In this document: positions 10,596 to 62,300 of the stretch, piece after piece | Position numbering within the stretch: position 1 is the stretch's first letter | How the letters are laid out: every line of letters starts with the position of its first letter | Assembly (NCBI GenBank): GCA_035528115.1 | Contig: DATKZF010000003.1 | Span: 551,089-615,088 of the forward strand | Length of the DNA: 64,000 nt | Reading direction: 5' to 3' | DNA from: Candidatus Bipolaricaulota bacterium | Lineage (GTDB): Bacteria > Patescibacteriota > Patescibacteriia > UBA11705 > DATKZF01 | Notes under the pieces: model-generated | The model's input: the letters and a program-made list of their open reading frames with translations, nothing else | Databases searched by the model: none | What the model was told of the DNA's origin: nothing | Made by a program: the position numbers and the translations under genes

Positions 10596-10705
10596 AAATT
10601 AAAATCGAAATTTTTTGTCCATCGAGTTCGCTTAAGACATTCGACTCGCCTCATGTGTGGTCGTAGACCATGAGCGACCCCTAGCGAAGTCGAGGGGGAG
10701 TCGAA

Positions 10706-10783
10706 TGGTAGCAGGGGTGGGGATCGAACCCACGACCTGAGGGTTATGATTCCTCCGCTCTAACCAAACTGAGCTACCCTGCC
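10706..10783 (-). tRNA. tRNA with anticodon CAT (Met or Ile2/lysidine type); CCA is encoded
   Basis: The reverse complement folds as a cloverleaf: GGCAGGG acceptor (G1-U72), GCTC/GAGC D-stem, anticodon loop aTCATAa, GTGGG-TTCGATC-CCCAC T-arm, ACCA end. Confidence 0.7.
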
Positions 10784-11002: not shown

Positions 11003-11077
11003 ATGATTTTTAAATGATTCGCCTCGTCCCTGCTTGTGCTGGAGGTGGAACACCATGAGCGAGCGGAGTGAGTCGAA

Positions 11078-11164
11078 TGGTGCCGCCGGTCGGAGTTGAA
11101 CCGACATGAACGTTAGTTCACACGATTTTGAGTCGTGCGCGTCTGCCAATTTCGCCACGGCGGC
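11078..11164 (-). tRNA. tRNA-Leu (anticodon CAA), type II with a long variable arm; CCA is encoded
   Basis: The reverse complement gives GCCGCCG acceptor, CACGA-cTCAAaa-TCGTG anticodon arm, a long variable arm, and a GTCGG-TTCAACT-CCGAC T-arm. Confidence 0.75.
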
Positions 11165-11402
11165 ATAATGATTTTAAATATTCTTTGCCAATTCCTGATT
11201 TTAGATATTTTTCTCTTTTTCTCGCTTCCTTTCGATTCGCAAATTTTTCTATGGTTATAATTTCAAATGGCATGTACGGTTTGGTGGTTCTGCTTTTTCC
11301 GGTATTATGCTGCCGTATTCTTTTATGTGGATTGATTGCCGTACCTACATAGATATAAGATTTTGATAAACTGGATATAGCGTAAGTAAAGCAATCTCGC
11401 AT
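11118..11402 (-). CDS. GIY-YIG nuclease-domain small protein
   Basis: YIYVGTAINPHKRIRQHNTGK...FEIITIEKFANRKEARKREKYLK is a classic ~85-aa GIY-YIG (URI) domain. The reading frame runs about 47 nt into the tRNA-Leu 5' half before reaching a stop. Confidence 0.6.
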   Translation of the reverse strand: MRDCFTYAISSLSKSYIYVGTAINPHKRIRQHNTGKSRTTKPYMPFEIITIEKFANRKEARKREKYLKSGIGKEYLKSLCRRGEIGRRARLKIV

Positions 11403-11544
11403 ATTTTATTGTCGTGCGCGCCTGCCTGCTCCTCGGGTCTGCCTTCGACGGCCCTGAGGGGCCGCTCAGGCCCTCGAAGGGAGCGACCTCGCCACTCGGC
11501 CGTGAGCTCGTGGCCGAACGGGAGTCGAAGACCGGCAGGCAGGT
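11403..11544 (+). repeat. GC-rich palindromic repeat element (B-module family)
   Basis: cctgcctgctcctcg...ctcgccactcggccgtgagctcgtggccgaacgggagtcgaagaccggcaggcagg, with inverted ends cctgcctgc/gcaggcagg. Related copies are at 20321, 57950 and 62020. Confidence 0.7.
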
Positions 11545-11605
11545 CTGCCAATTTCGCCACGGCGGCCTGCAAACAATATGGATACTATACAGTAAATGAT
11601 GAAAA

Positions 11606-11634
11606 TTGTCAAAAACCATGGAATGTATTATAAT
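11606..11634 (+). promoter_or_regulatory. Sigma70-type promoter upstream of parA
   Basis: TTGTCA, 17-nt spacer, TATAAT, located about 35 nt before the parA start. Confidence 0.5.
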
Positions 11635-20304: not shown

Positions 20305-20450
20305 CGTTGTCATCTCGACCGCCTGCCTGCTCCTCGAGTCTGAGCTCGCCACTCGGCCGTGAGCTCGTGGCCGAACGGGAGTCGAAGACCGGCAGGCAGG
20401 AAGTCGTCCGAAGCCGCGGCGAAGGATGACGAAGTGGAGAGAGCTTTTCC
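20305..20450 (+). repeat. GC-rich modular element, full A-B-C copy (MITE-like)
   Basis: Module A cgttgtcatctcgacc, module B palindromic cctgcctgc...gcaggcagg, module C aagtcgtccgaagccgcggcgaaggatgacgaagtggagagagcttttcc. Confidence 0.7.
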
Positions 20451-57867: not shown

Positions 57868-58063
57868 TTGTCATTTCGACCGACGACGATAGGAGGAGCG
57901 GAGAAATCTGCTTAAAAGGAGATAGCAGATCTCTCCACTTCGTCATCCTTCGCTAACGCTTCGGACGACTTCCTGCCTGCCGGTCTTCGACTCCCGTTCG
58001 GCCACGAGCTCACGGCCGAGTGGCGAGCTCAGACTCGAGGAGCAGGCAGGCGGTCGAGATGAC
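57868..58063 (+). repeat. GC-rich MITE-like element, reverse-orientation full copy bounded by 13-bp terminal inverted repeats
   Basis: ttgtcatttcgacc at the left end and ggtcgagatgacaa at the right end enclose the reverse complement of modules C and B. Confidence 0.65.
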
Positions 58064-58104
58064 AACTTCTTTTTACTAATTACCATTTACTGATTTCTGT
58101 TTAC

Positions 58105-61962: not shown

Positions 61963-62300
61963 TGTTACGAAGTACAAGATTCTAAGGCATATAGCTATAA
62001 TAGATGAATGTAATTCCTGCCTGCTCCTCGAGTCTGAGCTCGCCACTCGGCCGTGAGCTCGTGGCCGAACGTGAGTCGAAGACCGGCAGGCAGGCGTAAC
62101 AGATAACCTGAAAGCCAAATAGTCGATTGTAATACGTAACAAATAACCTGAAAGTTTAATAGTCGATTGTAATACGTAACAGATAACCTGAAAGCTTAAT
62201 AGTCGATTGTAATACGTAACAGATAACCTGAAAGTTTAATAGTCGATTGTAATACGTAACAAATAACCTGAAAGCTTAATAGAATATTGTAATTCGTAAC
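61962..62300 (+). repeat. AT-rich tandem repeat array with an embedded GC-rich B-module (62020-62100)
   Basis: The unit gtaacagataacctgaaagcttaatagtcgattgtaatac is repeated about five times, and the B-module cctgcctgctcctcgagtctgagctcgccactcggccgtgagctcgtggccgaacgtgagtcgaagaccggcaggcagg is inserted within the array. Confidence 0.7.

Follow-up and report, generated by a model that had tools for sequence, protein, structure and literature searches.

A tRNA-Leu gene in the window (the whole stretch of DNA that was analysed, 64,000 nucleotides long) probably carries what reads, from its sequence, as a minimal selfish cassette: a putative nuclease of 78 aa, resembling SLX1 and UPF0213 proteins, that would live inside tRNA-Leu transcription units. 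The same three-part design -- a nuclease gene, a leftover ("orphan") tRNA piece and a 20-base palindrome -- is found in hundreds of bacteria of many phyla and appears to be undescribed; literature searches, including ones with the palindrome sequence and the peptides it encodes, found no description of such a nuclease-orphan-palindrome system. The palindrome, here called PAL, is an exact 20-nt sequence (CCTGCCTGCCGGCAGGCAGG) that cuts the orphans in most loci; the window has a longer form, PAL-long or B-module. The features concerned are as follows.

11078-11164, minus strand: intact tRNA-Leu(CAA), 87 nt (ARAGORN; Rfam RF00005, 56.5 bits)
11118-11402, minus strand: GIY-YIG nuclease ORF, 94 aa (ORF list; Pfam PF01541)
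11132-11410, minus strand: extra segment relative to the empty site, 279 nt (compared with L119, empty, and L121, occupied)
11411-11420, minus strand: orphan tRNA-Leu fragment, nt 24-33 (CGCGCACGAC; repeat comparison)
11421-11543, no strand assigned: PAL-long (B-module), 123-nt GC-rich nested palindrome, between nt 23 and 24 of the orphan
11544-11566, minus strand: orphan tRNA-Leu fragment, nt 1-23, same sequence as the intact gene (repeat comparison)
11584-11612, minus strand: promoter-like TTGACA-17-TATAGT (promoter scan, 11/12 matches; three-way alignment)
20322-20400, plus strand: 79-nt PAL-long copy, intergenic (repeat search)
57972-58050, minus strand: 79-nt PAL-long copy, intergenic, its outer flanks common to the 20322 copy
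62016-62094, plus strand: 79-nt PAL-long copy, intergenic (repeat search)

An earlier note on this DNA had reported that 24 nt from the 5' end of tRNA-Leu recur beyond a GIY-YIG ORF. The 24-mer (GTCTGCCAATTTCGCCACGGCGGC) does have exactly two copies in the window, at 11141-11164 and 11543-11566, so the recurrence stands, with the second copy two positions away from the 11545-11568 first given; it is not a generic many-copy repeat, and 100 dinucleotide-preserving shuffles gave no match to it, tolerating up to 3 mismatches. In full, the duplication covers 33 nt (nt 1-33) and not the 24 first claimed, nt 24-33 being found again at 11411-11420. The orphan ends at nt 33, the boundary between anticodon stem and anticodon loop, and is interrupted between nt 23 and 24 by the 123-nt GC-rich palindromic insert; the B-module, which had been placed between the two tRNA copies, is present but lies inside the orphan copy, not beside it. 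The tRNA-Leu is intact by both the ARAGORN call and the Rfam score, and the full interval between the tRNA copies is 378 nt, with a single ORF.

The ORF is indeed a GIY-YIG gene lying between the copies, with a frame that enters the tRNA, as had been proposed. Pfam PF01541 gives it 57.8 bits (cut-off 22.6; E=1.4e-15), and the conserved 78-aa domain lies at 11169-11402. The ORF lacks a stop codon of its own: codon 78 is followed by a single T and then by nt 1 of the tRNA, so that the frame ends with 16 codons of tRNA sequence, up to a TGA at 11118-11120, an overlap of 47 nt. Homologs are 77-82 aa long, and Y7, Y18, G20, R28, H32 and E64 are unvarying across 34 of them. The AF2 model has a pLDDT of 89.6, with best Foldseek matches to the Slx1 nuclease domain and UPF0213, then to the UvrC N-terminal domain and the I-TevI catalytic domain; sequence score, catalytic residues and alpha/beta fold all place the protein in the GIY-YIG superfamily, endonuclease activity being predicted only. 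In both sequence and fold its best relatives are SLX1/UPF0213 proteins (PDB 1ywl, 1zg2, 7cq2, 4xm5), and the hallmark of the subfamily is a KYLKSGxGKE C-terminus together with an obligate tRNA context. The homologs, at their 77-82 aa, are the catalytic domain alone, with no DNA-binding domain for a long specific target. The sole related NCBIfam match is to TIGR01453 (group I intron endonuclease), at 16.9 bits against a cut-off of 56, and PHROG homing-endonuclease matches are marginal (E ~4e-4); by these family models and by its SLX1/UPF0213 relatives, the protein does not appear to belong in sequence to a SegB or intron-endonuclease type of clade. The unvarying catalytic residues are matched by a dN/dS of 0.05-0.2 for the ORF, indicating purifying selection. 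The window protein has an NCBI entry (P0001), although an exact-protein look-up gave no record. The family comprises ~2,600 clusters at 50% identity, its phyla including Bacteroidota and Patescibacteria, and it is all but missing from 2.9 million viral contigs; with only 2 matches there, a viral origin of the nuclease was rejected. A defence system was likewise rejected, the ORF having no PADLOC match.

Orthologous loci were located via the neighbouring metallophosphoesterase gene, in relatives that are distant (59-65% identity in the neighbouring protein). One of them, L119, is an empty site, in which parA is followed by a TTGACA/TATAAT promoter and then directly by tRNA-Leu. Another, L121, is occupied by an orphan (nt 1-23, palindrome, nt 24-33), a GIY-YIG pseudogene with an in-frame stop and a frameshift, and an intact tRNA; its palindrome is a plain canonical 20-nt PAL at the same tRNA position as in the window (after nt 23), and its orphan also ends at nt 33. 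The presence/absence comparison suggested in the earlier note thus finds the segment missing from L119 and decayed in L121 -- a polymorphism at one site of the kind looked for in homing genes -- and, with the same layout in all 80 of the loci described below, it supports the idea that an element inserted at the tRNA, or beside it, and left this footprint. L119, in a relative at ~60% protein identity, is the one empty site found, and it could be a secondary loss. By this alignment, the extra 279 nt is placed at the 5' edge of the anticodon loop and is made up of an 8-nt leader (AATAAAAT), the ORF and tRNA nt 1-33, the first 33 nt of the intact tRNA-Leu being the copy at the 3' end of the inserted segment. 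In L121 the D-loop of the orphan (GGCGAAATTGG) fits the lineage, and the intact tRNA has GGCGGAACTGG; there is a hint here that the 5' part of the working tRNA may have arrived with the cassette. The promoter-like site lies ~18 nt before the orphan, and its region is conserved with the promoter found immediately ahead of tRNA-Leu in L119; between orphan and tRNA the promoter scan gave only a weak 9/12 match, inside the ORF. As aligned, the native promoter is retained by the orphan, and it is probably the sole promoter for both the ORF and the intact tRNA.

Group I introns in the anticodon loop of tRNA-Leu are well known, and the junction at the anticodon-loop edge would suit one that carries a homing endonuclease. 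The functional tRNA is continuous, however; the Rfam scan of the whole window found three tRNAs only, with no intron, ribozyme or known RNA family covering the GC-rich element; and the 8 nt from orphan to ATG plus the 1 nt from ORF to tRNA leave no room for a ribozyme, so the intron was rejected. A chance local duplication is excluded by the shuffle test and by recurrence of the arrangement elsewhere, and we give either of these explanations practically no weight.

That recurrence is extensive. Homologous loci (n=80) were fetched from at least 8 phyla, the sources being Bacteroidota, Patescibacteria, Ignavibacteriota, Balneolales, Omnitrophota, Nitrospirota, one Bdellovibrionales MAG and gammaproteobacterial MAGs; the ORF adjoins a same-strand tRNA-Leu in 80/80, and all five anticodons are represented. 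The ORF lies upstream of the tRNA in 52 loci, with a 5' orphan farther upstream in 44 of them, while the tRNA lies upstream of the ORF in 22, every one with a 3' orphan downstream. Orphans have 96.6% identity to the local tRNA, 41 of 72 matching it perfectly, and their limits vary, with 5' orphans ending from nt 14 to nt 73 and 3' orphans starting from nt 1 to nt 68; a single precise insertion point for the cassette is unsupported by such end points, which fit sloppy break-induced duplication better than site-specific insertion. Tandem units of tRNA and nuclease are present in five loci (L009, L025, L055, L069 and L077), which together with the tRNA co-localisation is the pattern seen with SegB. 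The ORF is a pseudogene in L121, L063 and L222, one unit of L077 has a deleted ORF, and L158 has orphans without any ORF, stages that fit the cycle of invasion, decay and loss ascribed to homing genes. In 33 of 86 cases the closest relative of an ORF belongs to a different phylum.

Partial tRNA duplicates are a classical signature of integrative elements (bioRxiv 10.1101/2022.07.05.498093), and the duplicated end might on that ground be taken for the attL/attR pair of a decayed integrase-type island or prophage. We regard this as very improbable and have rejected it: the interval of 378 nt holds a single GIY-YIG ORF and no integrase, it is the 5' part of the tRNA that is duplicated and not the 3' end, the same GIY-YIG-only minimal layout is seen in 80/80 loci, and the nuclease family has just the 2 matches in viral contigs.

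The second copy of tRNA nt 1-33 carried by the insert keeps the tRNA intact, the original 5' part being stranded upstream as the orphan. Under the selfish-cassette reading, ORF and functional tRNA would both be transcribed from the tRNA promoter and, the ORF having lost its stop codon, an RNase P cut at the tRNA 5' end would yield a non-stop mRNA, which should hold nuclease levels low. By analogy with phage SegB, the nuclease may break tRNA-gene DNA, whereupon recombinational repair would copy or duplicate the cassette; orphan and intact tRNA would act as portable homology arms suited to any tRNA-Leu gene, and such arms would generate both the mirror layouts (orphan 5' half-ORF-tRNA and tRNA-ORF-orphan 3' half) and the tandem arrays. 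PAL would land, with no target duplication, at a few preferred positions in the dispensable tRNA copies and, as it splits the direct repeat, should hinder recombinational loss of the cassette. Several points stand against this reading: the protein is a bare catalytic domain, lacking the DNA-binding domain with which classical GIY-YIG homing enzymes recognise long targets; the intact tRNA of an occupied allele would regenerate any target within the tRNA, which leaves self-cleavage unexplained; and the variable orphan end points, the single empty site and the small share of PAL sites beside this gene (9 of 127 metagenomic sites among the matches listed, 1 of 42 viral sites) weigh against it as well.

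PAL-long and the canonical 20-nt PAL have the same termini (CCTGCCTGCCGG...GCAGGCAGG), and the 123-nt form is predicted to fold into nested hairpins that the PAL ends close (for DNA, -37 kcal/mol with z ~-3 to -3.6); judged from such comparisons, the B-module is a grown long form of PAL, which accompanies the nuclease family and is also dispersed alone. PAL (with up to 3 mismatches) is found in 59 of the 80 nuclease loci, and of the 78 matches there, 58 lie within 100 nt of the ORF and ~20 are spread across the remaining ~400 kb. In tRNA orphans PAL adds exactly 20 nt and duplicates none of the target, with hot spots after nt 14/15 (20 cases) and after nt 23 (17 cases) and rarer positions after nt 32, after nt 44 and in the T-stem/T-loop; strict cloverleaf stem-loop boundaries account for these in part, nt 32, nt 44 and T-stem/T-loop fitting and nt 15 and nt 23 not doing so cleanly. 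Exact PAL sites number at least 127 in metagenome contigs and 42 in viral contigs. With these and the four copies in the window, PAL is a dispersed multi-copy palindrome, as MITEs and REPs are; unlike them, it has no target-site duplication in the orphans and, at all but 2 of 127 sites among the matches listed, no RAYT-like gene beside it. Among the matches listed, the frame around PAL is open for 150 nt or more in each direction at 23 of 127 sites, and by comparison with solved homologs PAL makes 7-residue (x)LPAGRQ insertions in ATP synthase alpha, LysRS and SecA; RPE-like in-frame insertion is thus a feature of related metagenome loci, not of the window. PAL-encoded peptides are also present in the called ORFs of 38 of 269 database homologs inspected. 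An adapter or assembly artefact was rejected, as PAL is present in isolate genomes (Salinimicrobium, Algoriphagus), has point variants and nested forms, is placed in frame inside genes, and recurs at orthologous positions in independent assemblies (the window, L116 and L121).

One reading of these facts, which we hold to be quite plausible, falling a little short of probable, is that PAL and the B-module are an independent parasite of hairpin DNA with no mechanistic link to the nuclease, which merely makes dispensable tRNA copies; PAL would prefer tRNA-like DNA and survive only in those copies. It would account for the 118 of 127 metagenomic sites (among the matches listed) and 41 of 42 viral sites with no GIY-YIG homolog nearby -- this nuclease being near PAL at 9 and 1, respectively -- as well as for the PAL-cut tRNA fragments without an ORF in L158, L202, L242 and L034, the similar phage tRNA-Met fragments in L082 and L105, the in-frame PALs within essential genes, and the three other PAL-long copies of the window, which are far from the ORF. 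Against it, PAL is ~70 times as dense beside the ORF as elsewhere in these loci, and orphans identical to the working tRNA already bear PAL, suggesting that PAL comes with the cassette or soon after. Moreover, GIY-YIG is the sole gene family repeatedly beside PAL (11 of 120 loci, 6 of them within 70 nt), and an SLX1-type structure-specific nuclease would be a natural partner for hairpins or cruciforms. A RAYT as the enzyme mobilising PAL was rejected: an IS200/RAYT-like gene is found in 3 of 120 PAL loci, adjacent to PAL in only 2, and both the window and the 80 nuclease loci lack one.

A doubtful but possible extension, argued by analogy, is that PAL and the GIY-YIG nuclease of the tRNA-Leu loci are the two parts of one mobile system, comparable to REP/RAYT and based instead on an SLX1-like nuclease. 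The nuclease, sheltered in tRNA transcription units, would cut and paste (or copy) PAL in trans into DNA that readily forms hairpins, be it a spare tRNA copy, an intergenic hairpin or, in several phyla, an essential protein gene, where PAL reads in frame as LPAGRQ. The PAL in the orphan might then lock the cassette in place, since most recombinational deletions would put PAL into the sole working tRNA.

It is also conceivable, but unlikely, that the nuclease is a domesticated host gene serving adaptive tRNA-Leu amplification or repair, or supplying decoy fragments that absorb PAL and thereby spare the working copy. In an Algoriphagus-like clade the cassette looks vertically inherited, apparently over a long time, under strong purifying selection, which is compatible with domestication too; across species with 30-45% synonymous-site differences between their ORFs, the part of the orphan beyond PAL is unvarying, staying identical to the working tRNA, and the stretch from ORF to PAL is unalignable. 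SegB-driven tRNA amplification, moreover, benefits phage T6 (PMC13096335). Domestication sits poorly, however, with an empty site in a relative, frequent pseudogenes, a patchy distribution among phyla with closest relatives often in other phyla, and the lack of any match of the ORF among anti-phage defence library models; and the duplicated pieces, being partial and disrupted by PAL, add no tRNA dosage.

If the selfish-cassette reading is true, few self-contained selfish genes of bacteria would be smaller than this one, which takes up ~280 bp, encodes a single 78-aa catalytic domain and survives in an essential gene by carrying a spare half and borrowing the tRNA promoter. The link between SegB-type GIY-YIG genes and tRNA-gene dynamics, recently shown in phages, would extend to bacterial chromosomes. 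If the two-part system is true, PAL would be the smallest mobile DNA known. With PAL in frame in ATP synthase, SecA, LysRS and other essential genes, the question of which enzyme moves very short palindromic repeats becomes testable, the GIY-YIG nuclease being a candidate. There are consequences for annotation as well, in tRNA pseudo-fragments and in ORFs lengthened by tRNA-encoded and PAL-encoded peptides (VAELADLPAGRQA...).

Among known systems, SegB is the closest relative of the tRNA-Leu cassette. It is larger, with a C-terminal part beyond the catalytic domain, whereas the protein described here consists of the 78-aa catalytic domain alone and is nearest to SLX1/UPF0213. SegB of phages T4 and T6 is a free-standing GIY-YIG homing endonuclease in a tRNA gene cluster; its cuts fall within tRNA genes and lead, by way of recombination, to tandem amplification of tRNA plus segB. 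In some of the repeats the nuclease ORF is truncated and there is microhomology with the 5' end of the tRNA, and SegB homologs are statistically enriched beside tRNAs with no isotype preference (PMC2330249; PMC13096335). The two systems share a GIY-YIG gene physically tied to tRNA genes and the tandem tRNA-nuclease units. They differ in that the present family is chromosomal, in at least 8 bacterial phyla and almost no viral contigs, while SegB is phage-borne; the present subfamily is restricted to tRNA-Leu, whereas SegB homologs go with any isotype; and the stereotyped orphan half-tRNA and PAL are unreported for SegB.

In fungal mitochondria, free-standing GIY-YIG ORFs insert into a host gene, supply a replacement end and leave the original end as a pseudogene fragment, and they are often accompanied by GC-rich double-hairpin elements. 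There as here, a nuclease ORF with a partial duplication keeps the host gene working and displaces an orphan fragment, and mobile GC-rich palindromes co-occur; but the targets there are organellar protein genes, with the ORF usually fused in frame, while the present cassette sits in a bacterial tRNA gene, may duplicate either half of it and goes with a palindrome that is always the same 20-mer. Complete and partial tRNA copies likewise bracket the insert of integrase-type islands and prophages, with the tRNA functional (bioRxiv 10.1101/2022.07.05.498093). The cassette differs from them in having no integrase or att-type recombination and an insert of less than 0.4 kb, and in duplicating the 5' half as often as the 3' half, with variable end points.

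Rickettsia palindromic elements (RPEs) lie in frame inside protein genes, and REPs go with RAYT (Y1/HUH) transposases. PAL resembles the former in being short, dispersed and in frame within essential protein genes, and the latter in clustering beside a candidate mobilising gene. Unlike either, it is only 20 bp long, a perfect palindrome and the same across phyla, with no target duplication in tRNA copies, and its neighbour is a GIY-YIG nuclease, a RAYT-like gene being adjacent at 2 of 127 sites among the matches listed. The nuclease itself is most like SLX1 and UPF0213 (YhbQ-type) proteins, which are its best sequence and fold matches and have the same catalytic residues. In eukaryotes SLX1 partners SLX4 on branched DNA, and we know of no reported tRNA-gene linkage for UPF0213 proteins; the present subfamily is set apart from both by its distinctive C-terminus and its obligate tRNA context.

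The 24-mer GTCTGCCAATTTCGCCACGGCGGC occurs in the window at 11141-11164, where it forms the 5' end of a tRNA-Leu(CAA), and at 11543-11566; it had zero matches in shuffled versions of the window and, with only these two exact copies, is not the widespread repeat that the earlier note had weighed against its own reading. The exact duplication described there therefore stands, though the second copy lies 2 bases from where it had been placed and the true duplication is 33 nt: since tRNA nt 24-33 also recur at 11411-11420, the upstream partial copy (the orphan) comprises nt 1-33, its 3' limit falling at the exact start of the anticodon loop. The GC-rich B-module reported between the copies is likewise present, but inside the orphan, which it splits between nt 23 and 24.

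Features of the tRNA-Leu locus (window coordinates)
11612-11584: promoter, near-consensus TTGACA-17-TATAGT, immediately upstream of the orphan
11421-11543: GC-rich nested palindrome of 123 nt, between orphan nt 23 and 24
11411-11420: orphan piece, second copy of tRNA nt 24-33
11402 down to 11118, minus strand: GIY-YIG ORF, 94 aa (Pfam GIY-YIG, E=1.4e-15)
11078-11164, minus strand: complete tRNA-Leu(CAA), called intact by ARAGORN and Rfam

As had been noticed, the ORF lies between the copies and its frame runs into the tRNA. It starts 8 bases past the orphan and lacks its own stop codon; codon 78 ends 1 base short of tRNA nt 1, and the frame continues for 16 codons inside the tRNA. An RNase P cut at the tRNA 5' end would make a non-stop mRNA (window 11118-11168), possibly acting as a brake on nuclease expression. 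In some database homologs, such as P0002 and P0053, the frame likewise enters a tRNA. A promoter scan between orphan and tRNA gave a single weak match (9/12), within the ORF.

Loci syntenic with this one were reached via homologs of the neighbouring metallophosphoesterase, and the segment proved to be present in some relatives and absent from another. One locus (L116) is from the same population, with 100% identity across 1.4 kb. In L119 (61% protein identity) the site is empty, the conserved promoter region being followed directly by tRNA-Leu(CAA); against it, the window carries an extra segment of leader, ORF and tRNA nt 1-33 (the cassette), with the tRNA intact and the native promoter now on the orphan. 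L121 (59% identity) is occupied, in the order promoter, orphan nt 1-23, the 20-nt palindrome CCTGCCTGCCGGCAGGCAGG and nt 24-33, followed by a GIY-YIG ORF that is frameshifted and carries an in-frame stop, and then an intact tRNA. The window and L121 agree in where the palindrome sits and where the orphan ends, and because the termini are identical the 123-nt insert of the window is a grown version of the L121 20-mer. The L121 orphan agrees with its lineage in the D-loop while the working tRNA deviates at two D-loop bases, a hint that the latter acquired its 5' part together with the cassette. As the three lineages are about equidistant, one old gain followed by loss, or separate gains, could account for this distribution; both fit. 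In a separate assembly from the window's species (L117, 99.3% identical) the 125-kb contig stops within the tRNA cluster, and what remains there holds two tRNA-Met genes of one type (L117:1-600); this reflects either an assembly break or real structural variation of the tRNA/nuclease locus. At NCBI the identical protein is assigned to a 'Candidatus Bipolaricaulota' MAG, while the named relatives of the neighbouring gene are Patescibacteria (CPR), namely Patescibacteria group, Peregrinibacteria, Falkowbacteria, Gracilibacteria and Uhrbacteria; the label may be wrong.

The layout recurs widely. A pattern scan using one genome per species gave 428 loci encoding relatives, and the 80 best of them were analysed. 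ARAGORN places a tRNA-Leu 5-130 nt from the ORF on the same strand in 74 of these 80, and by inspection the other 6 have the same layout, with a tandem array, an N-masked tRNA or a contig end; all five Leu anticodons are represented. The window order of orphan 5' part, ORF and tRNA is seen at 52 loci (orphan detectable in 44), and the mirror order of tRNA, ORF and orphan 3' part at 22 (orphan in all 22, the terminator often duplicated), while orphans flank both sides at 12. Orphans are 96.6% identical to the local tRNA, perfectly so in 41/72, and tandem units, ORF-deleted units and ORF pseudogenes also occur. The arrangement is repeated among more remote paralogs at tRNA-Asn, -Ser, -Lys and -Arg; about 2,600 clusters were matched by the profile at E≤1e-10, and in 33/86 cases the nearest relative of the ORF came from another phylum. 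At L053:3310-3450 the nuclease ORF and the orphan 3' part are separated by seven tandem copies of a 19-nt unit, TGGTCTGCCTTTGGTAGAC, and this unit looks like a tRNA D-arm fragment joined to PAL-like bases (PAL being the exact 20-nt palindrome). At L158:100-400, which has no nuclease ORF, a complete tRNA-Ala with a different acceptor stem and a short flanking inverted repeat has apparently inserted into a resident tRNA-Ala, leaving two orphans with pairing acceptor strands, one 5' and one 3', the latter cut by PAL.

The homologs are 77-82 aa long, with invariant Tyr, Tyr/Gly, Arg, His and Glu residues and no DNA-binding domain. An AF2 model is confident (pLDDT 89.6), matching best the Slx1 nuclease domain and UPF0213 proteins and next the UvrC and I-TevI catalytic domains. 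The conservation and selection that the earlier note proposed to check are evident: dN/dS is 0.05-0.2 among Algoriphagus-like loci, with synonymous divergence from 0.26 to saturation, so the protein is kept by selection.

PAL (≤3 mismatches) was found at 59/80 loci; 58 of 78 hits lie <100 nt from the ORF, every one within an orphan copy, on either side. Compared with the adjacent intact tRNA it is an insertion that adds exactly 20 nt and does not duplicate its target, favouring positions after nt 14/15 and nt 23 and more rarely after nt 32, after nt 44 or at the T-stem/T-loop junction. There may be two or three in one orphan, and PAL variants are nested within PAL, as in the long form of the window. 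Two 79-nt copies of that form (PAL-long), in the regions 20306-20440 and 57950-58066, have common flanks of ~15-45 nt per side (GTTGTCATCTCGACCG ... AAGTCGTCCGAAGC..GCGAAGGATGACGAAGTGGAGAGA), and thus both are nested within a second, larger palindromic repeat. Directly after another copy (62016-62094) are tandem repeats of ~45 nt (cgtaacagataacctgaaag..tagtcgattgtaata; 62095-62190), and short tandem or direct repeats also flank many metagenomic PAL copies. GC-rich hairpin-forming elements at 10638-10707 and 11016-11078, right after the CCA of one tRNA-Met and of the tRNA-Leu, both start with the T-loop-like TTCGACTC and have a common core, GCTCATGGT; the second tRNA-Met in the window has none. 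They may represent terminators, a further family of small repeats or tRNA 3' remnants.

PAL is, besides, an independent element. Viral contigs carry it in exact form at 42 sites and metagenome contigs at 127 or more (mean GC 44% among the matches listed), with a GIY-YIG homolog adjoining only 1 of the 42 and only 9 among the metagenome sites listed. About 9% of listed sites lie inside or close to a tRNA gene or a tRNA-like fragment; a called tRNA lies <500 nt away at 11 of the 127 metagenome sites listed. Among these same sites 23 are in frames open for ≥150 nt on both sides, read mostly as LPAGRQ.

In-frame PAL, (x)LPAGRQ, in essential genes of metagenome contigs
L162:389
L228:5786
L205:1197
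L160:1401
L216:12286
L178:8498
L153:4699

Exact 7-residue PAL insertions are seen in ATP synthase alpha, LysRS and SecA when these are aligned with homologs of solved structure; further PAL-peptide ORFs look, by eye from their translations, like putative PurH, P-type ATPase, DNA ligase (with three PAL-like inserts) and glycoside hydrolase. The insert is 21 nt within genes, against exactly 20 nt within tRNA orphans. On two viral contigs (L082:8616, L105:2284) PAL lies in the variable-loop region of a phage tRNA-Met, which in L105 is still called by ARAGORN, at 92 nt; with PAL as an extra arm such a tRNA might remain functional. An IS200/RAYT-like (Y1 transposase) gene lies 60-330 nt from exact PAL on two metagenome contigs (L134:174-1204 and L138:5330-5901), and ~9 kb away on a third, L208. 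It is possible, though less likely than not, that nuclease and PAL make up a two-part mobile system.

The likeliest course of events is that the tRNA promoter co-transcribes ORF and tRNA, RNase P processing shortening the stop-less message, and that the nuclease would break tRNA-gene DNA, after which recombination, with orphan and intact tRNA as homology arms, would copy or duplicate the cassette; the breakage and recombination step is proposed because of the precedent of SegB, a phage GIY-YIG endonuclease of a tRNA gene cluster. Beyond PAL the orphan sequence is invariant across species and the ORF-to-PAL stretch decays, which fits ongoing gene conversion halting at PAL. The same pattern suggests that PAL, by shortening the usable direct repeat, stabilises the cassette. 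Weak points of this mechanism are that the nuclease lacks a DNA-binding domain, that the working tRNA would be expected to stay a target, that orphan end points vary, and that the single empty site found is in a distant relative.

Neither the PAL sequence nor its peptides were found in the literature searched. Rickettsia palindromic elements and REP sequences resemble PAL, though PAL is a fixed 20-bp perfect palindrome common to several phyla. Integrase-type tRNA integration is like the cassette only in the partial tRNA copy left behind. Fungal mitochondrial GIY-YIG ORFs supply a replacement gene end, and the cassette resembles these. SegB cleaves within tRNA genes and causes tRNA+segB to be amplified in tandem by a recombination-dependent route, and SegB homologs show enrichment next to tRNAs (PMC13096335; PMC2330249). 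By sequence the cassette nuclease falls outside the SegB clade, and the DNA-binding domain is absent here; in its proposed mode of action, the cassette resembles free-standing homing endonucleases such as SegB.
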